Shown here: positions 47,128 through 56,518 of the stretch, piece by piece
Layout of the letters: each line of letters opens with the position of its first letter
How positions within the stretch are numbered: position 1 is the first letter of the stretch
From: Thermoproteota archaeon
GTDB lineage: Archaea > Korarchaeota > Korarchaeia > B14-G2
NCBI GenBank assembly: GCA_037917675.1
Contig: JAVCBW010000034.1
Location: forward strand, 1-64,000
Direction of reading: 5' to 3'
Length of the DNA stretch: 64,000 bases
The notes under the pieces: model-generated
Seen by the model: the letters and a program-made list of their open reading frames with translations, nothing else
What the model was told of the DNA's origin: nothing
Databases searched by the model: none
Position numbers and translations under genes: made by a program

Positions 47128-47844
47128 GTGGTGAGAGGTATGGTGCCTCCGATAATCATGCAGATATGGCAGATGCTGGTAAGCTGGGTTCCAAGGCTGA
47201 TAGCTGTCATCATAATACTGCTGGTAGGCTGGATCATAGGGAGGCTGCTAGGCAAGGGTATCTCAAGGGTGCTTGACAAGGTGGGGCTAGATGATGCTCT
47301 GAGGAAGACCATATTAGGGAAGGCTATAGAGAAGTCTGGGATGAGCATAGTAGGCTTCTTCGACTTGATAGTGAGGCTCTTCGTCTACCTTGTAGCGATA
47401 TTCGCTGCAGTAGACTACCTGGGCATAGAGGTCCTCAGCGCGTACATGAAGGCTGTAGTAGAGTACCTGCCAAGCCTGCTAGCTGGCATCTTTGTGATCA
47501 TAGTAGGCTTCATAGTCTCAGACTTCATAGGGGACACGCTGGCTGCAGTAGGCAAGGAGGCTGAAGTAGCCTATGCCTCGCTGTTCGCTACAGGCCTGAA
47601 GTTCTTCCTCTACTTCATAATAATAGTCATAGGCCTCCAGATGATGAAGATCGACGTGAGCATAATATACCTGTTCGCTAAGGCAGCAGCTTGGGGTGCT
47701 GCAGTAGGCATCGGAGCAGGCTTAGGCATAGCAGTCGGGTGGGGCTTCAAGGACTATGTAGCCAGGAAGGCAGAAGAGTGGACTAAGACTCTATCAGAGG
47801 CGGCAAAGAAGGCAGAGGAGGGTGTTGGCAAGAAGGCTACTTGA
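47128..47844 (+). CDS. Conserved TM-helix repeat protein (MscS-associated/CmpX-like)
   Basis: Repeats [16 protein letters not shown] and [16 protein letters not shown]. Confidence 0.75.
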
Positions 47845-49558
47845 GCATGGGCATTCTGATTCCCTCCTTTTTTACAGTCTGGATTGCCTTCTCATAGCCT
47901 GCGTCAGCATGCCTTACGACACCTATACCAGGGTCTACTGTAAAGACTCTGAGAGCTCTCTCCTCAGACTTCTCTGTACCATCTAAGACTAGGCTGAAGC
48001 CTGCATGTATGCTGTAGCCTATGCCTACTCCTCCACCATGGTGGACTGCGACCCATGTTGCGCCAGCTGCTGTGTTCAAGAGAGCATTGAGTATAGGCCA
48101 GTCTGCTACAGCATCTGAGCCATCCTTCATCCCCTCAGTCTCTCTCATCGGTGAGGCTACGCTGCCAGAGTCAAGGTGGTCTCTACCGACCCATATAGGC
48201 CCAGCTAGCTCCCCTCTCCTTACCATGTCATTTATCATCTTGCCGAACCTAGCTCTCTCACCGAAGCCAAGCCAGCAGACCCTAGCTGGGAGCCCCTGGA
48301 ACCTCACGTGCCTCCTAGCCTTCTCAATCCACCTACACAGCCTCTTGTTGTAGCTGAACTCACTTAGTATCGTGTCGTCGAGAGCATATATGTCCTTTGG
48401 CTCACCAACTAGGCTAGTCCACCTGAATGGTCCTCTACCCTCCTCGAACATAGGCCTTATGAAGGCTTGGACGAACCCTGGGAATGCAAATGCCTCAGCA
48501 TACCCTGCCTCATAAGCCATTCTCCTGATGTTGTTCCCGTACTCGAAGACGACACTGCCCTTCTTAGCGAACTCAACCATTGCTTCAACATGCTTCCTCA
48601 TCGACGCTAGAGCTCTCCTGACATACTCTCGTGGGTCGCTTTGCCTCAGCCTAGCAGCCTCCTCAACTGAAAGGCCTTCTGGGATGTATCCGCTAAGCGG
48701 GTCATGGGCTGCAGTCTGGTCTGTCACGACATCTGGTATCACACCTCTCCTGAGGAGCTCAGGGAATACTGTGGCAGCGTTGCCTAGAAGCCCTATGCTC
48801 AATGGCCTCCTCTTCTCCTTCGCTTCCAGAGCCATGTCTATAGCCTTGTCGAGGTCATCTGTCCACGTGTCTAGGAAGCCATGCCTGATTCTCCTCTCAA
48901 TCATCCTCCTGTCGACTTCAACTATCAGCCCAACGCCTCCATTCATCGTTATCGCTAGTGGCTGAGCTCCACCCATCTCACCTAAGCCAGCTGTCAAGAC
49001 AAGTCTCCCCTCGAGGCTTCCTCCAAAGTACATGTCTGCAGCATACCCGAATGTCTCATAGGTGCCCTGAAGTATCCCCTGTGTCCCTATGTAGTTCCAG
49101 CAGCCAGCTGTCATCTGCCCGAACATTATCAGCCCCCTCCTCTCAAGCTCCCAGAAGTGCTCCCAGGTAGCCCACTTAGGCACGAGCAGAGCGTTGGCAA
49201 AAAGTATCCTAGGAGCCATCTCATGGGTCTTGAACACAGCTACAGGCTTCCCACTCTGGATTACAAGGGTCTCATCAGGCTCCATGGTGAGCAGCGTGTC
49301 TACTATGGCCTCAAAGCACTCCCAGTTCCTAGCTGCCTTCCCAGTCCCACCGTACACAATGAGGTTCTTAGGGTCCTTAGCTACCTCAGGGTCAAGTACA
49401 TTGAATAGCATTCGTAGAGCTCCCTCAATCTGCCAGCTCTTACAGTGGAGCTCAGCTCCCTTGATCACATGAACCTCTCTCTTCTCAGGGTTATAGTAGC
49501 CTTTATCAACCAGAACCTTAAGAGGCCTCGCCTCAACAGCTAAAGCTCTCTCACTCAA
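47837..49558 (-). CDS. hutU: Urocanate hydratase
   Basis: [45 protein letters not shown]. Confidence 0.97.
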
Positions 49559-50207: not shown

Positions 50208-52010
50208 TCAATCAAAGCCTACTGAGCTCTTCGCTACACGTAGGATGTCAGGGAGTGCTTCTCTAACCTTAGCTATGTCTCTGTAGTAGGGGCGGTCTTC
50301 CCTTATCGGGAGGCCTATCAGCCTCCCTATATGGCTGTAGGCTGCTCCTGTCCCTGCTCCGAGGCTGCTGGCGCTCAGCTCTGCTGCCTCCAGCCTCAGC
50401 GATATAGCCTGAGAAGCGTTTAGCAGCTCTATTGCAAGCACCGTCTTCGCGTTCTCTAGGATCTCTCTAGCCTTCAAGGCTGCAGTCATGCTCATACTCA
50501 CATAGTCCTCCTGGTTGGCTGATGTCGGTATGGTGTCTGCTGAGGCAGGGTGTGCTAGCACCTTGCTCTCTGATGCTAGTGCTGCAGCAGTATACTGTGT
50601 TATCATGAGCCCAGACATCAAGCCGCCTCCCTCTATGAGGAATGGTGGCAGCCCCCTGTTTAAGGTAGGGTCAAGTAGCCTGAATGTCCTCCTCTCTGAG
50701 ATCATGCTCACATATGTCAAGGCTATTGCTAGCGTGTCTAATGCGAGAGCTAGAGGCTGCCCATGGAAGTTTGCTCCAGAGATGACCTCCATGCTCTCTG
50801 GGAGGACCAGAGGGTTATCGCTTACAGAGTTTATCTCGACTTCAACTATCTTCCTAGCGAACTCTATGGCCTCTCTCAGCGCGCCATGCACGACTGGAGC
50901 ACACCTTATCGAGTAGGCGTCTTGTACTCGCCCTAGCTCAGCTCTCGTGAAGTCCATGTCTGAGAGGATCTTCTTAGCCTCGCTAGCAGAGCACATGGCT
51001 AGCAGCCTATTCTCTCCTTCAGCATGGACTCTGATCCCTGCTTTAATGGATATGGCTTCAGCTAGCTTAGCTGAGCTCACACCTAAGGCTGAAAGCAGCC
51101 TCCTACTCACCTCAAGCTTAGCTCCACCAGGAGCCTCCTCGAGCTCAGTGAGCTCAGCTAAGCTGAGCCCCATCCTCCTCAGCATAGGATCTGAGCTTGC
51201 CCCTACAAGCCTGCTTCCAGCTAGGAACGCTCTAGCTAGCCTAGCGCTCTCCACCTGCCCGCTATGCGGCCTGAGCTCATGTAGCCTGCTGTCAAGGTGG
51301 TCTGTTGGCGAGAGGAGGGCCTCCATGGTCATCGCAAGCGCTAGGTCAGCTAGCTCAGCTAGAGCCTGGCTCTCATGGAGTAGGAGGCATGCTAAGCCTG
51401 CTGTAGCCTGCGTCCCATTGTTGAGTGCAAGCCCCTCCTTGTAGCTGAGCTCAAGAGGGCCGCCGACCTCTCTCAGAGCACTCTTCAGCTCCTCTCCTCG
51501 GACTCTCCTACCTCTCCAGTAGGCTTCCCCCTCCCCTATCAGAGCTAAGGCCATGTGGGATAGAGGAGCTAAGTCTCCACTTGCTCCAACAGACCCCCTC
51601 TCAGGGACAACTGGAACCAGATCCCTGTTGAGGGCTTCGGCTAAAACCTCTAGCACATGATACCTGACACCAGAGTAGCCTCTAGCAAGAGTGTTTAGCC
51701 TCACTAGCATCATTGCTCGAACAACCTCTCTAGGAAGCTCTCTCCCAACACCAGCTGAGTGGCTGAGGATCATGTTCCTCTGGAGCAAGCTAGCCTCCCT
51801 AGAGCTGACCCTGCTTTCAGCAAGAGCACCAAAGCCTGTTGTAACCCCATATACGACAGCTCCCCCCTCAACTAGCTCAACTAAAGCCTTCCACGCCTCC
51901 TCAACCCTCTCCCGCACCCCCTCAGCTATCTTGACCTCAGCTCTCCCATAAGCAACATCTACGACATCTCTGATGGTTAAGCCCTCTCCACTCACAACCA
52001 CAGCCCTCAA
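50208..52010 (-). CDS. hutH: Histidine ammonia-lyase with internal insertion
   Basis: VYGVTTGFG, LSH substrate motif, ASG (MIO) in VGASGDLAP, QDAYSIRC, NFHG, NQED. Confidence 0.95.
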   Translation of the reverse strand: MRAVVVSGEGLTIRDVVDVAYGRAEVKIAEGVRERVEEAWKALVELVEGGAVVYGVTTGFGALAESRVSSREASLLQRNMILSHSAGVGRELPREVVRAMMLVRLNTLARGYSGVRYHVLEVLAEALNRDLVPVVPERGSVGASGDLAPLSHMALALIGEGEAYWRGRRVRGEELKSALREVGGPLELSYKEGLALNNGTQATAGLACLLLHESQALAELADLALAMTMEALLSPTDHLDSRLHELRPHSGQVESARLARAFLAGSRLVGASSDPMLRRMGLSLAELTELEEAPGGAKLEVSRRLLSALGVSSAKLAEAISIKAGIRVHAEGENRLLAMCSASEAKKILSDMDFTRAELGRVQDAYSIRCAPVVHGALREAIEFARKIVEVEINSVSDNPLVLPESMEVISGANFHGQPLALALDTLAIALTYVSMISERRTFRLLDPTLNRGLPPFLIEGGGLMSGLMITQYTAAALASESKVLAHPASADTIPTSANQEDYVSMSMTAALKAREILENAKTVLAIELLNASQAISLRLEAAELSASSLGAGTGAAYSHIGRLIGLPIREDRPYYRDIAKVREALPDILRVAKSSVGFD

Positions 52011-52246: not shown

Positions 52247-52833
52247 GTGTGTCGCCACCCCTCAGCTGAGGGATCAGAGTGGAAGCTGATAGCTCCATGT
52301 GGCCTCTACTGTGGTGAGTGCACAGCCTTCCTCAATGGAGAGTGTAGTGGATGTAGAGCTGGTGTTGGGCTAGCTAAGGAGTATAGGAGGCTTTGCAAGA
52401 TTGCCAAGTGCTCTGAGAGGAAGGGTATCCAGGTCTGCATAGACTGTGATGAGTTCCATGTAGGCTCTTTGAGCTCTTCAAGTCTGAGGATCTAGAGTCT
52501 AGTGCTTGGCTCCTAGATGTGTGGGTTAACATGAAGCAGGTCAGGAAGCTAGGGATATCAGAGTTCCTGAGCAGGAGGAGAAGCCGGGTTGAGGAGAGGA
52601 AAGCTTGTGCTAGGAGCATGGGAGTCAGCTTCTGTGACGAGTGTGAAGACTGGCCATGCGACCTGCTAAAGAGGCCTGTACTAGCCCCCATGGACCTCAA
52701 GCTGTTCGAAAGGCTCATGGGGGCACGAGGAGCCCTAGCTGAGCAGAGCTACGAGGTATACCCAACATTTCCAGCGTGTAGGAGCATCATGGAGGTAGCC
52801 TGCCATGCCAGCTCTCTGAGCTCATCTCCATAG
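52247..52833 (+). pseudogene. Cys-rich DUF3795-like protein split by a single-base frameshift
   Basis: APCGLYCGEC...C..C..EF then, one base off, (P)CRLFELFKS...CDECEDWPC; one C missing at about 52456. Confidence 0.75.
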
Positions 52834-53036
52834 CTCACTTACACCATAGCCTCTCAGAGGCCTGCGAGGCCATCTCGCAGCTACAGCTGCTGATCACAGG
52901 GCCTCAGCAATGTGGGTCGAGACAGCAGACACTAGCAGCATGCTTGAGTTAGGTGCCGAGTGGGTCCTCTGAAGCCTTTAAGCTGCTTTGGTAGCCTAGA
53001 AAAATTTTAATTATAGCTTAAGCTAGGTCTAGTTGC

Positions 53037-53124
53037 GGCCGGGGTGAGGTAGCCTGGTTAGCCTGGGGGCCTGTGGAGCCCCAAGCCCGGGTTCAAGGCT
53101 ATAGAGAGAGTCCCGGCCCCGGCC
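53037..53124 (+). tRNA. tRNA-His(GUG) with encoded G-1 and a 13-nt intron in the T-loop
   Basis: Acceptor GCCGGGG/CCCCGGC, D-stem AGGT/GCCT, anticodon arm GGGGC-CTGTGGA-GCCCC, T-stem CCGGG/CCCGG enclosing 20 nt; C discriminator; AT-rich promoter at about 53000-53015. Confidence 0.93.
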
Positions 53125-53708
53125 CATGCTGCTAGCTGCCTCCCAAGCTTAGCTGAGCACTTAGATCTACCTCATGCAGCTACCATAGCTATGACACCGC
53201 TAGTGGCGCTAAGATATGGGGTTAGAGGTGGTTTTCAGGCTGAACTCGCTTCAGAGGCTGTCAGCCTACTAGGCATCTAGCCTCTATCACAAGCTGCTTG
53301 GAGAGGGAGCTATAGCCCTAGTCAGCACCTTGCTTCAGCTTCCAAAGAGCTACCTTGGTCTGCAGGCTGGGGTGTAGTATTGAGAGGTGAGCTGAGGTAG
53401 CGTAGGAGATGGTGCTTCAGCTGAGGAGTATTAGCTGAGTGCTTTCATAGGTCAGCTCCAGAGTGGGCTTAGGCTGCTCTAGCAGCTCATGCAGCGTGTA
53501 TATGGCTTTTGCTGTTGCTTGGCTCAGCTGGCAACCTTTAAATAAGCTGCCTGAAGCCTCCAGGTGGGGTTGGTATGCTGCCAGCTTCTAGAAGGTTTTC
53601 CCTCTCAGCTGTAGTAGCCTCTAGTCTAGGAGGTTTTTGGGTTCATAGCTGACGGAGGCTGCCAGAGGAGGTTTCTGCAGTCAGGGAGCCTAGCTTGGAG
53701 GTGTCTGT

Positions 53709-55331
53709 TTGAGCAGGGTGTTTAAGGCTCCACGTGGAACTAGGGACTTTACCCCAGAGGAGATGGCTAAGCGTAGCTATGTTGAGAGGGTCATCAGGAG
53801 GGTCTTTGAGAGCTATGGGTTCCAGCAGGTTCAGACACCGATCTTCGAGGCATTCGCCCTCTTCGCTCTGAGGTCTGGTGAGGAGATAAGGAGCAAGATG
53901 TTTGTCTTCACAGTAGACGGAGAGGAGATGGCTCTGAGGCCAGAGGTGACGGCAGCAGTCTGCAGGATGGTCTCCTCAGGTGAGCTAGACCTGTCTAAGA
54001 AGCCTCTCCGCCTATACTACATAGGGCAGTGCTACCGCTATGAGGAGCCTCAGGCAGGCAGGTATAGGGAGTTCTGGCAGGCTGGAGTAGAGCTCATGGG
54101 CTCACCTAACCCTGAGGCTGACGCTGAGGTCATAGCTCTAGCTGTAGACGTGGTGAGGAACCTCGGGATAAGAGGCTTCGAGCTGAGAGTCGGAGACATG
54201 CGTGTCATGAGAGGCCTCCTAAGCGAATCAGGTGTGCCAGAGGAGGCTCAGAACAGGGTGATAAGCTCTCTGGATGTGCTGGAGAGCAGCATAGAGAAGC
54301 TCTCGCTCTACGCTGACAGGCTCAGAGGCAGCGGAGAGCTTGCTAGAGAGGAGCTAGCTGACCTGGGCAGGAGGCTTGATGAGCTCAGAGCATGGAAGGA
54401 AGAGGAGTATAGGAAGATGTCCTCTGGAGAAAGCGAGCTGCCAGCTAGCTTAGAGCCTCTCCTGGAAGTCGACCCCCTAGTATACAGGGTGAGGGAGCTA
54501 TATGAGAGTGGCAGGAGAGAGGAGCTAGCTGAGCTCATAGAGAAGTCGATCCGAGAGCTCAAGGAAGCCCAGAAGGCAATGTGGGTCTACTATGGAGTAG
54601 AGTATGAAGATGGAGTGGAGGTGAAGAGAGCTAAGCTGAGCACCAGCACAGCTGAGGCTCTCCTCAAGATGATGGACCTACATGGCCCAAGAGACAGCGT
54701 GCTAGATGCTGCCAAAAGCATACTCTCCAGCTATCCCTCAGCTCTAAGAGCCTTAGACGCATACAGAGAGGTCCTAGACCTGCTCCCACACCATGGGGTA
54801 GAGGAGTATGTTGCTGACCTCAGCATAGCTAGAGGCCTAGAGTACTATACTGGGATAGTCTTCGAGATCCACTGCCCATACCTAGGCGCTCAGAAGCAGG
54901 TCTGTGGAGGAGGACGCTATGACAAGCTCGTAGAGGAGTTCGGTGGCCCGAGCATGCCAGCTACAGGGTTCGCCTTAGGATTCGATAGGCTAGTCTTAGC
55001 TATGGAGAAGTCTGGTGTGAGGTTTCCGCCACAGAGGAGAGCAGATGTCTATGTGGCTGCACTCTCAGCTAACATAGTCCCATATGCCATAGAAGTCTCC
55101 AGGAAGCTCAGGGAGGCAGGGGTAAGAGTAGAGATGGACACTATGAGGAGAAGCATCAGGGAGGCGCTTTCCTTTGCATCCAAGATGGAGATGCCGTTCG
55201 TAGCGATCATAGGTGAGAGGGAAGCTGCTGAACACAAGGTCACCTTGAGGATCATGGGTGAGAGAAGGCAGGTCACACTCACCCCAGAGGATGCAGCTAG
55301 CCTAGTAGCTAGCAGGGTGGGATCACGGTAG
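53709..55331 (+). CDS. hisS: Histidine--tRNA ligase with large insertion
   Basis: PRGTRDF, TPIFE, LRPEVT, YRYEEPQAGRYREFWQ, RGLEYYTG, GGGRYD, GFALGFDR, anticodon-binding domain. Confidence 0.95.
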   Translation: MSRVFKAPRGTRDFTPEEMAKRSYVERVIRRVFESYGFQQVQTPIFEAFALFALRSGEEIRSKMFVFTVDGEEMALRPEVTAAVCRMVSSGELDLSKKPLRLYYIGQCYRYEEPQAGRYREFWQAGVELMGSPNPEADAEVIALAVDVVRNLGIRGFELRVGDMRVMRGLLSESGVPEEAQNRVISSLDVLESSIEKLSLYADRLRGSGELAREELADLGRRLDELRAWKEEEYRKMSSGESELPASLEPLLEVDPLVYRVRELYESGRREELAELIEKSIRELKEAQKAMWVYYGVEYEDGVEVKRAKLSTSTAEALLKMMDLHGPRDSVLDAAKSILSSYPSALRALDAYREVLDLLPHHGVEEYVADLSIARGLEYYTGIVFEIHCPYLGAQKQVCGGGRYDKLVEEFGGPSMPATGFALGFDRLVLAMEKSGVRFPPQRRADVYVAALSANIVPYAIEVSRKLREAGVRVEMDTMRRSIREALSFASKMEMPFVAIIGEREAAEHKVTLRIMGERRQVTLTPEDAASLVASRVGSR

Positions 55332-56518
55332 TGAATATAGCTGTAGTAGGGGAGGCAAGCTGTGGCAAGTCGATGCTCATAGGAGCTCTCCTCCATAGCC
55401 TCAGAGAGGTCCCAGATGGGTTCGTGGAGAGGCTCAGGAGAGAGTCTAAGGCTGTGTCTGGAGAGGACAGGGCCTACGCCTACCTGCTAGACAAGAGCAT
55501 GGAGGAGAGGAGGCTAGGCCATACGCTTGAGGTTAAAGCCTGCAAGCCACTAGAGCTCCATGGCACCTCAGTTAGGCTAGCTGACACACCTGGCCTCGAG
55601 AGAGGTGCTCACGGACTCATGTCAGCGTTGATGCAGGCTGATGCAGTCTTAGCTGTAGCAGACCCGACATCACATTCTATAGCTAAGCTAGAGGACTCTC
55701 TCATGACAGCAGCTCTCCTCTCAGTAGACCAGTGTATAGCTGCTATATCCAAGATGGATGCTGTAGGCTACTCAAAGCATGCATATGAGTCTACAGCACT
55801 GAAGATCGAGAGGGCAGCTGATTCAGCTGGCATAGTCCTCAAGGCTATAGTCCCAGTGTCAGCTAGGGAGCTCGAGAACATAGCTGAGCCAGGAGGGAGG
55901 ATGAGCTGGTATAGCGGCCCAACGCTAGCTGAAGCTCTAGCTGAGCTGAGAGAGCCAGAGAGGCACCTAAGCCTCCCAATGAGGCTCCCAGTCCAGAGGT
56001 ACTATGAGAGGCCAAATGTGATAGCAGGTGTGATCGCTACAGGTGTAGCTAAGGTAGGCATGGAGATCGTGCTAGCTCCATCAGGTGCCAGAGGGGTAGC
56101 TGAATCCATTGAGTCATGGGGCACTAGGCTAGAGGAAGCTGAGGCAGGTGAGGATGTTGGAGTCAAGCTCAGGGGGGTAGCGAGATACCAGGTGAAGAGA
56201 GGCTTCCTAGCTGGGCCAGCTGACAGCCCACCTAAGTCAGCTAGAGAGCTCACTGCCAGAGTGCGTGTCAAGGTGCCTGAGGCCATCAGGCCTAAGAGGT
56301 CTCTGATGGCATATGTCCACCAGGCTAGAGCTCAGTGTAGGATTCTAGAGGCAAGCCATGAAGGAGAACACACTCTGCTCAAGCTTAGAGTAGAGGATCC
56401 ACGCCCACTTCCAGTAGACGAGCATATGCCTGTAGTCAGCAGGATAGCTCTCAGAGCCCAGCTGAAGGAGTCATCTAAGACTGTAGCTGGAGGAGTCTGC
56501 ACTGAGGTGGCAGAGTGA
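55331..56518 (+). CDS. Divergent EF-1alpha-like translational GTPase paralog
   Basis: GEASCGKS, YAYLLDK..EERRLGHT, DTPG, SKMD, PVSA, WYSGPTL, domain II PMRLPVQ...AEAGEDVG. Confidence 0.85.
   Translation: MNIAVVGEASCGKSMLIGALLHSLREVPDGFVERLRRESKAVSGEDRAYAYLLDKSMEERRLGHTLEVKACKPLELHGTSVRLADTPGLERGAHGLMSALMQADAVLAVADPTSHSIAKLEDSLMTAALLSVDQCIAAISKMDAVGYSKHAYESTALKIERAADSAGIVLKAIVPVSARELENIAEPGGRMSWYSGPTLAEALAELREPERHLSLPMRLPVQRYYERPNVIAGVIATGVAKVGMEIVLAPSGARGVAESIESWGTRLEEAEAGEDVGVKLRGVARYQVKRGFLAGPADSPPKSARELTARVRVKVPEAIRPKRSLMAYVHQARAQCRILEASHEGEHTLLKLRVEDPRPLPVDEHMPVVSRIALRAQLKESSKTVAGGVCTEVAE

Follow-up and report, generated by a model that had tools for sequence, protein, structure and literature searches.

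RESULTS

A gene pair at the hisS locus

We analyzed a stretch of 64,000 nucleotides (contig JAVCBW010000034.1, positions 1 to 64,000; hereafter the window) from genome G000 of an uncultured sediment archaeon, an assembly of 1.78 Mb in 62 contigs that is 92.7% complete. The subject of this study is a pair of genes within it: hisS, encoding histidyl-tRNA synthetase (HisRS), and a gene directly behind it that encodes a paralog of archaeal elongation factor 1 alpha (EF-1alpha, here EF1A or aEF1A). The pair is made up as follows:

53709..55331, + strand: hisS (540 aa), from TTG start to TAG stop; encodes a class II catalytic core, an extended insertion domain, and an anticodon-binding domain
55331..56518, + strand: three-domain EF-1alpha-derived paralog of 395 aa, GTG start, with Leu in place of the catalytic His
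55329..55333, + strand: TAGTG junction (context cggTAGTGaat); base 55331 is at once the G of the TAG that ends hisS and the first G of the GTG that begins the paralog

The first-pass annotation, made from the letters alone, had placed the genes at these coordinates with a one-base overlap at 55331, just as we read them from the sequence. A Shine-Dalgarno (SD)-like run, agggtggga, lies 8 to 16 nt upstream of the paralog start, and the neighbor of the paralog on the side away from hisS is a nitroreductase-like gene.

The pair is conserved but rare

The survey of gene neighborhoods that this annotation had called for bore out the linkage in related and unrelated genomes alike. The paralog lies directly behind hisS, on the same strand, in 11/11 loci with readable context, which come from 10 genomes (G000, G001, G023, G043, G044, and G047 to G051) and one metagenome contig (L165) and represent two GTDB phyla; one more family member, P0010, stands outside this count. 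Because the overlapping or adjacent pair recurs in all 11 loci, the arrangement is not due to chance. Spacing ranges from a 29-nt overlap to a 16-nt gap, the overlaps being possibly overestimated since the first in-frame start was taken as the start codon, and purine-rich SD-like runs precede the paralog in most loci. A genome of the same genus, G001 (Thermoproteota archaeon B14_G2), has the same pair with the same 1-nt overlap and a paralog that is 79% identical, while G023, from another family of the phylum, encodes a HisRS of 528 aa and, overlapping it by 14 nt at the gene level, a paralog of 409 aa with the motif DTPGY. Across the family as a whole, adjacency to hisS holds at 27 to 42% identity.

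When the family profile was run over the GTDB class (40 genomes) and phylum (43 genomes) of G000, the paralog was found in G000, G001, and G023 only; the sister family f2 has it in 0/36 genomes and encodes canonical EF1A only. A scan of 185,579 species genomes and JGI metagenome contigs added the metagenome-assembled genomes L084 and L085, labelled Bathyarchaeia or Bathyarchaeota, and contig L165, each with a HisRS of 543 to 555 aa overlapping the paralog. Within the order of G044 (the genome of L085) the paralog occurs in 7/9 genomes, and five further genomes of this order were found to carry hisS directly upstream of it; within the class of G044 it occurs in 7/401 sampled genomes, these being the same 7.

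The linked HisRS is the housekeeping enzyme and carries an additional domain

The window HisRS scored 387.6 bits against the hisS model TIGR00442 (cut-off, 286.75) and 213.4 and 62.1 bits against the Pfam families tRNA-synt_His and HGTP_anticodon, respectively. The motifs RYREFWQ, GGGRYD, and GFxxGxDR are conserved, and the protein thus qualifies as a HisRS by score, class II motifs, and anticodon-binding domain. No second HisRS above the TIGR00442 cut-off was found in G000, and the linked hisS must therefore encode the housekeeping enzyme; the linked HisRS is likewise the sole one above the cut-off in each of the five genomes searched (G000, G001, G023, G043, and G044). The protein also passes the model for HisZ, TIGR00443 (280.4 bits; cut-off, 271.65). 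A HisZ identity was rejected, given the presence of the anticodon-binding domain, the higher hisS score, and the fact that this is the only HisRS in the genome. Since it passes the HisZ equivalog cut-off, automated annotation could mislabel long HisRS of this type.

The length of the linked enzymes is accounted for by the following feature:

54291..54677, + strand: lineage-specific extension of the HisRS insertion domain (about aa 195 to 323, boundaries approximate), with long helices and a beta hairpin

All linked HisRS are 528 to 555 aa long, with intact catalytic motifs and a conserved block of roughly 120 residues within the insertion domain. In our alignments, this block is conserved across 10 long HisRS, missing from the short HisRS of G008, and partly missing from that of G046. 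Its distribution follows that of the paralog. Within the class of G044, the full extension was found by an insertion-domain profile in exactly the 7 genomes that have the paralog; in the 36 f2 genomes, the HisRS match is broken into two pieces that leave out the extension block; and G046, which belongs to the order of G044, has a 475-aa HisRS without most of the block and lacks the paralog, no such open reading frame (ORF) being found in the 335 nt left downstream of hisS before the contig ends. No HisRS was found in the incomplete genomes G033 (66% complete) and G045 (0.7 Mb), which are uninformative on co-occurrence. A profile search of 5.8 billion proteins with the insertion block returned 11 clusters of long HisRS at 90% identity, and a single-sequence word search with the insertion matched the query itself and P0160 only.

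An AlphaFold2 (AF2) model of HisRS residues 165 to 372 reached a mean per-residue confidence (pLDDT) of 95.5 and a pTM of 0.88. Foldseek returned no PDB fold match for the insertion domain at an E value of ≤0.001 (best E, 1.1), which leaves an EF1B-like or other known docking fold unsupported, and no Pfam family was found for the extension block.

The paralog derives from aEF1A and has lost the catalytic histidine

Against the EF-1alpha models TIGR00483 and PRK12317, the paralog scored 193.6 and 212 bits, below both cut-offs (540.1 and 502). Scores were lower still for CysN (TIGR02034, 142 bits; cut-off, 336.1), SelB (TIGR00475, 51.9 bits; cut-off, 242.25), and aIF2-gamma (21.5 bits). Membership in SelB/aSelBL was rejected, the TIGR00475 score lying far below its cut-off and well under the EF-1alpha score. 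A canonical EF-1alpha elsewhere in the genome, for which the first-pass annotation had advised to look, is encoded on contig C57 (623.9 bits, above the TIGR00483 cut-off) and shares 32% identity with the paralog. Each of the five genomes searched for HisRS also encodes canonical EF1A, that of G043 being split across two contigs with each piece below the cut-off.

In a PDB profile search, the paralog matched Aeropyrum pernix aEF1A over its full length (positions 2 to 420) with 387 bits, at 30% identity to the canonical A. pernix structures (3WXM, 3VMF, and 4CXG). An AF2 model (pLDDT, 86.2) consists of a G domain and two beta-barrel domains and resembles GTP-form aEF1A (3WXM and 3VMF), with a TMq of 0.89, versus 0.46 to 0.52 for GDP forms. 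The paralog therefore derives from aEF1A and has kept its three-domain fold. It differs from canonical archaeal EF1A in falling far under the family cut-offs, in lacking the catalytic His, in a change of the G1 His to Glu or Asp, and in a shortened domain II hairpin. Its GTPase motifs are located as follows, with counts given for the 11 full-length family members (12 where metagenome contig L165 is added):

55349..55372, + strand: G1/P-loop GEASCGKS (aa 7 to 14); GKS invariant in 11/11 family members
55583..55597, + strand: G3 DTPGL (aa 85 to 89); catalytic His of DxPGH replaced
55748..55759, + strand: G4 SKMD (aa 140 to 143); [NS]KMD in 10/11 members, NLKE in G023

Aligned with the canonical EF1A of the same genome, the paralog reads GEASCGKS for GHVDHGKS at G1, RLGHT for RGLTI in switch I, and DTPGL for DAPGH at G3; in domain II, it has a 3-residue deletion at ITGVGLV and reads GVIATG for GRVVTG and GEDVG for GDNIG. 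The altered G1, switch I, G3, and domain II motifs that the first-pass annotation had listed are thus genuine, while its inclusion of SKMD as a paralog-specific change at G4 was an over-reading: the canonical EF1A of G000 (C57; L001 1489-2760, - strand) itself has SKMD, not the usual NKMD.

The position of the catalytic His is occupied by another residue in 12/12 members (Leu in eight and Tyr, Ile, Met, and Val in one each). The switch I Thr is found in 10/11 members, with Ser in the remaining one, and the SA of G5 is invariant in 11/11. Because G1, the switch I Thr, DxxG, G4, and G5 are kept and the catalytic His is gone throughout, nucleotide binding by the family appears plausible from its motifs, and ribosome-activated GTP hydrolysis does not.

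Domain II residues are replaced by new invariant ones

The second region in which the paralog departs from EF1A is the following:

55997..56155, + strand: remodelled pocket of domain II, with R223, V234, W263, and D275 and with a loop shortened by 3 aa after aa 226

Of 127 columns that do not vary among 17 canonical aEF1A, the family retains 44 and has lost 29; retention amounts to 30/65 columns in the G domain and 9/34 in domain II. In domain II, canonical D228 is replaced by R and R242 by V (10/11 members each), and H271 is replaced by W and N283 by D (11/11 each). In the numbering of the window paralog, the new family residues include R223 (10/11), W263, and D275 (11/11 each), and the hairpin beside the replaced positions is shortened by 3 residues. 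We placed the changed columns on Thermus aquaticus EF-Tu numbering by way of the Thermus motifs PVEDVF, EMHRK, and GDNVG, which we take to be equivalent. By this motif-based placement, Glu226 would be H or Q in the family, Asp227 would be R, Asn285 would be D, the His two residues past Glu271 would be W, and Arg300 would presumably be kept as K or R. The description of EF-Tu in PMC4329189 assigns His67, Glu226, Asp227, Phe229, Thr239, and Asn285 to the aminoacyl pocket, Ile231, Val237, Leu289, and Glu271 to the A76 pocket, and Lys90 and Arg300 to the 5'-phosphate site. Since the domain II positions of the paralog are replaced by new invariant residues and not scrambled, its 3'-end pocket appears to have been rebuilt under selection, which would fit either a new specific ligand, the obvious candidate being the histidyl tRNA end, or a protein contact.

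Both genes are under purifying selection and appear to share one history

The ratio of nonsynonymous to synonymous substitutions (dN/dS; Nei-Gojobori) of the paralog was 0.21 for G000/G001, 0.15 for L084/L085, 0.17 for L085/L165, and 0.25 for L084/L165, and that of HisRS in the same four pairs was 0.11 to 0.18. A ratio near 1, which the first-pass annotation had named as the mark of a decaying copy, was thus not seen. That annotation had also reckoned with a place inside a characterized clade such as CysN. A maximum-likelihood (ML) tree of 43 rows (LG+G4) unites the 12 rows of the family in a clade of their own with 100/100 support, apart from both the canonical aEF1A group (92/95) and the CysN-type clade (100/100); a quick tree of 68 rows agrees. 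In an exhaustive HMMER scan of 1.84 billion representatives, the close clusters P0010 and P0011 were found at 41 to 42% identity, with further matches at 35% and below.

The paralogs of G000/G001 and G023 nest inside the diversity of the order of G044, that of G023 being very divergent (branch length, 2.2). When a HisRS tree was computed with the extension columns removed, the enzymes of G000 and G023 likewise grouped with those of the order of G044 (100/100), and not with f2 of their own class. As the HisRS and paralog subtrees are congruent, the two genes appear to have been inherited as a unit, and as a unit they probably also crossed between phyla; the direction of transfer is tentative, with f2 as the sole outgroup.

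Two other kinds of EF1A-like proteins came up. The branch of a second divergent group (P0012, P0014, and P0015) falls between canonical EF1A and the HisRS-linked family; P0012 has DVPGH and P0014 has DSPGD. On C18 (L247 1489-3511, - strand), G023 encodes a further EF1A-derived protein of 398 aa with GHVDHGKS and DAPGH, directly downstream of a gene for a 271-aa protein. From its sequence, we take the latter to be CysD-like and the pair to be of the archaeal CysDN type, in the same class as G000. The 398-aa protein was accordingly rejected as a family member, being CysN-like and adjoining a CysD-like gene.

Co-folding of HisRS and the paralog

HisRS (540 aa, 5-row alignment) and the paralog (395 aa, 7-row alignment) were co-folded, as the first-pass annotation had proposed. 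The three runs gave an ipSAE of 0.60, 0.62, and 0.60, compared with 0.00, 0.00, and 0.16 for controls, a result that counts as weak support; the pLDDT of the partner was at least 86, and at least 97% of contacts were shared among the runs. The mark set for such predictions is reached by 58/80 solved complexes and 2/110 mismatched pairs, just 7 of the 80 solved complexes and both mismatches doing so at ≤0.60, and a pass at such a score is rated as more likely to be false than true unless the pairing was probable beforehand.

Histidine-related genes near the pair

Three features upstream of hisS relate to histidine:

50208..52010, - strand: hutH (histidine ammonia-lyase), divergent from hisS; TIGR01225, 569.4 bits (cut-off, 539.15), matched in two stretches
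47837..49558, - strand: hutU (urocanate hydratase), downstream of hutH; TIGR01228, 890.3 bits (cut-off, 375)
53037..53125, + strand: probable tRNA-His(GUG), about 580 nt upstream of hisS, with G-1 encoded opposite C73 and an intron of about 13 nt in the T-loop

The window HutH has an insertion of about 80 aa (aa 279 to 357) relative to the HutH of G044 (516 aa), with the MIO motif GASGD intact. A second gene of the histidine ammonia-lyase family, on C5 of G000, scored 511.6 bits, under the hutH cut-off. In 6/9 loci with enough context, hutH adjoins the hisS pair, in three orientations. Neither hutH nor hutU was found in G023, which has the pair, and the Hut enzymes are therefore not required for it.

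The tRNA candidate surfaced through conservation between G000 and G001, in which its exons are 100% identical and differences cluster in the inserted stretch, together with a subthreshold match to the Rfam tRNA model (18.3 bits, E value of 0.8; gathering score, 29). The Rfam alignment places the acceptor, D, and anticodon arms, with the anticodon loop CUGUGGA. An Rfam scan of the window at the gathering score gave no tRNA match, and in G000 no tRNA-His was found by aragorn, with intron mode on or off, or among 35 Rfam tRNA matches. The minimum free energy fold of the unspliced 90 nt shows no cloverleaf (z, -1.14). From a parse of T arm and intron made by eye, this 90-nt stretch is probably a tRNA-His gene with a noncanonical intron. 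No tRNA-His was found within about 5 kb of the pair at other loci, so that the adjacency is confined to one genus (G000 and G001).

Several further observations concern the surroundings of the pair and the tRNAs of G000. Two small Cys-rich ORFs (52247-52495 and 52519-52833, + strand) both match DUF3795 (40.1 and 20.2 bits, in different parts of the model) and may belong to a single gene that a frameshift or an assembly error has divided. The roughly 875 nt upstream of hisS (52834-53708) are almost free of ORFs, and 53233-53439 is 67% identical to G001. On C41 of G000, where many tRNA matches cluster, most of them with introns, aragorn calls an intron-containing "tRNA-Pyl (cta)" (100292-100387, - strand), probably a misparsed intron. 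In 5/7 genomes of the order of G044 (loci L084, L270, L264, L265, and L267), a CinA/NMN-deamidase-related gene (about 265 aa; NF002291, 290.7 bits against a cut-off of 293) lies downstream of the paralog, which is probably inherited synteny.

DISCUSSION

We describe a real, conserved, and rare two-gene module that combines known themes, namely specialized EF paralogs and synthetase:EF complexes. We are confident that hisS and the paralog are a co-selected functional pair. It is also likely, though with less assurance, that the two proteins associate physically, while binding of His-tRNAHis by the paralog is possible but falls somewhat short of an even chance. That the two genes constitute an obligate, co-inherited two-protein module acting on HisRS or on His-tRNAHis, by an inferred mechanism, is the reading that we favor, at about even odds.

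According to this reading, translational coupling would lead to both proteins being made together. The paralog, probably GTP bound and unable to perform ribosome-triggered hydrolysis, would dock on the HisRS extension, beside the active site of the synthetase, and act from there on HisRS or on its product, most likely by capturing or shielding the charged 3' end when His-tRNAHis departs from the enzyme. Its role would then be that of an escort or guardian, comparable to that of aSelBL/MM1309 with Cys-tRNACys, rather than that of a second ribosomal elongation factor. In its most elaborate form, which is tentative and which we regard as doubtful, the family would be a hitherto unrecognized, hydrolysis-dead, GTP-locked, EF1A-derived subfamily of translational GTPases (trGTPases) that forms a HisRS holoenzyme through a coevolved docking domain and takes His-tRNAHis from the active site to shield it, to meter its supply to the ribosome, or to report its status to hutHU. 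The first-pass annotation had suggested a HisRS-binding subunit, a His-tRNA carrier, channelling, and histidine sensing; the linkage, the selection, and the separate clade stand behind a functional partnership of this kind, co-folding leans weakly toward binding, and the particular roles go beyond these results.

A number of observations weigh against the favored reading. The case for physical binding consists of genomic association and one weak prediction. The 3-residue shortening affects the hairpin that forms the A76 wall, and the pocket changes may reflect a loss of tRNA 3'-end binding and not a re-specialization. The correspondence with tRNA-contact residues of EF-Tu is motif based and tentative, and the residue that we take to be equivalent to Lys90, at the tRNA 5' phosphate, is not conserved in the family (Gly in four, His, Lys, and Asn in two each). 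In domain III, merely 5/28 of the canonical invariant columns are kept, and neither net charge nor isoelectric point separates the paralogs from canonical EF1A. With a degenerate G4 (NLKE) in the G023 paralog and Asn in place of the G3 Asp in 3/12 members, GTP binding may not be universal in the family. Since G046 and all f2 genomes use a HisRS that lacks both features, HisRS function as such does not depend on the module, and a family so rare and patchy, with 11 clusters of long HisRS among 5.8 billion proteins, fits the horizontal transfer of a hitchhiking pair.

In the main alternative, the paralog would be an allosteric, nucleotide-dependent regulatory subunit of HisRS that makes no contact with tRNA, as CysN is for CysD, or a histidine-status switch tied to the hut genes. 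Linkage and co-occurrence speak for this as much as for an action on His-tRNAHis, the tRNA-contact positions are poorly kept, and HisRS shares adenylate formation with CysD. A layout of EF1A-like protein plus adenylating enzyme does exist in the class, as shown in G023 by the CysN-type gene beside one that we take to be CysD-like. A link to the hut genes is suggested by hutH being adjacent in 6/9 loci in three orientations and by hutU in the window. However, G023 has the pair and neither hutH nor hutU, and adjacency of hutH inside one order may be inherited synteny. CysN, moreover, keeps DxPGH and hydrolyzes GTP, whereas the catalytic His is missing from 12/12 members of the present family, and a domain II pocket replaced by new invariant residues rather than decayed suggests that a ligand is still bound there. 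On balance, we consider the regulator rather unlikely. Membership in the CysN-type GTPase subunits of sulfate adenylyltransferase itself is refuted by the tree and the gene context: although TIGR02034 is the second-best NCBIfam family, its 142 bits are far below the cut-off and below the EF-1alpha score, the CysN-type proteins form a clade apart (100/100), the paralog has no cysD as a neighbor, and the true CysN-like protein of G023 keeps DAPGH and adjoins a CysD-like gene.

A dedicated ribosomal elongation factor that carries His-tRNAHis to the A site, in the manner of SelB, would agree with the full three-domain EF1A architecture modelled in a closed, GTP-like form, with the intact nucleotide-binding motifs, and with the tRNA-His gene upstream of hisS in G000 and G001. 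We judge it very unlikely nevertheless, as the His needed for ribosome-activated hydrolysis is missing in 12/12 members and canonical EF1A is kept in each of the five genomes searched, while the adjacency of tRNA-His is limited to one genus and no second tRNA-His was found among the 35 Rfam tRNA matches in G000. Still less credible is a decaying or neutral EF1A duplicate that came to lie beside hisS by chance or hitchhiked with it in a horizontal transfer. The patchy occurrence (3/43 genomes in one phylum, 7/401 in another class) and the long branches, up to 2.2 in G023, are what such a copy might show, but the dN/dS of 0.15 to 0.25 is similar to that of HisRS, the ORFs are intact in 11 loci with family-specific invariant residues, adjacency to hisS has been maintained at 27 to 42% identity, and the paralog co-occurs strictly with the HisRS domain extension.

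The favored module of HisRS and EF1A-like partner has relatives among known systems. Specialized paralogs of EF-Tu/EF1A include SelB, aSelBL, CysN, and Hbs1/eRF3, and loose complexes between synthetases and EF1A are known as well. The closest functional likeness is to the aSelBL protein MM1309 of Methanosarcina mazei, in which the catalytic His is Tyr50, no GTPase activity was detected, and Cys-tRNACys is bound and its hydrolysis slowed (PMC4329189). Both are archaeal paralogs of the EF-Tu superfamily present beside canonical aEF1A, with the catalytic His replaced, in the G023 copy also by Tyr. MM1309, however, is SelB-like, has 350 aa, and carries Arg for the P-loop Lys, whereas the HisRS-linked family is EF1A derived (TIGR00483, 193.6 bits, versus 51.9 for selB) and keeps this Lys; and the account of MM1309 in PMC4329189 mentions no link to a synthetase gene, whereas the present paralog always lies behind a HisRS with a co-occurring extra domain. 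CysN-CysD, a GTP-regulated ATP sulfurylase, offers another EF1A-like protein dedicated to an adenylate-forming enzyme encoded by the adjacent gene, with an example in G023, but CysN keeps DxPGH, is an active GTPase, forms a separate clade (100/100), and has CysD rather than a tRNA synthetase as its partner. Physical association of a synthetase with EF1A, with proposed channelling of aminoacyl-tRNA, is described for LeuRS:EF1A of Methanothermobacter and for vertebrate ValRS:eEF1A/eEF1B (PMC4394549). As described there, these complexes involve the housekeeping EF1A, without a dedicated paralog, loss of the catalytic His, or an operon, and the archaeal case has no appended docking domain.

Atkinson (2015) distinguished seven archaeal trGTPase subfamilies, aEF2, aEF1A, aGTPBP, aIF2g, aSelB, aSelBL, and aIF5B (PMC4342817). 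None of these seven resembles the HisRS-linked paralog, although the additional files of that study may list lineage-specific archaeal paralogs. Full-text literature searches, which covered the main texts of articles, found no published description of a HisRS-linked EF1A paralog; the "Ss-EF1A-like" of PMC11698992 is merely the name of a model mRNA and was set aside as not relevant.

What appears new relative to these systems is the genetic tie between one synthetase and a dedicated, catalytically disabled EF1A paralog, with the synthetase itself bearing a new domain to match. Should the two proteins bind each other, they would provide a compact natural system for the hand-off of aminoacyl-tRNA from a synthetase to an EF-like protein and would reveal what the EF1A scaffold does once ribosome-triggered hydrolysis has been removed; at 540 and 395 aa, the pair is small and within reach of direct biochemistry and cryo-electron microscopy. 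If HisRS indeed forms a holoenzyme with an EF-like subunit, it would be the first case of an aminoacyl-tRNA synthetase that has an elongation-factor-like partner dedicated to it, in a module that would move between archaeal phyla as a unit.

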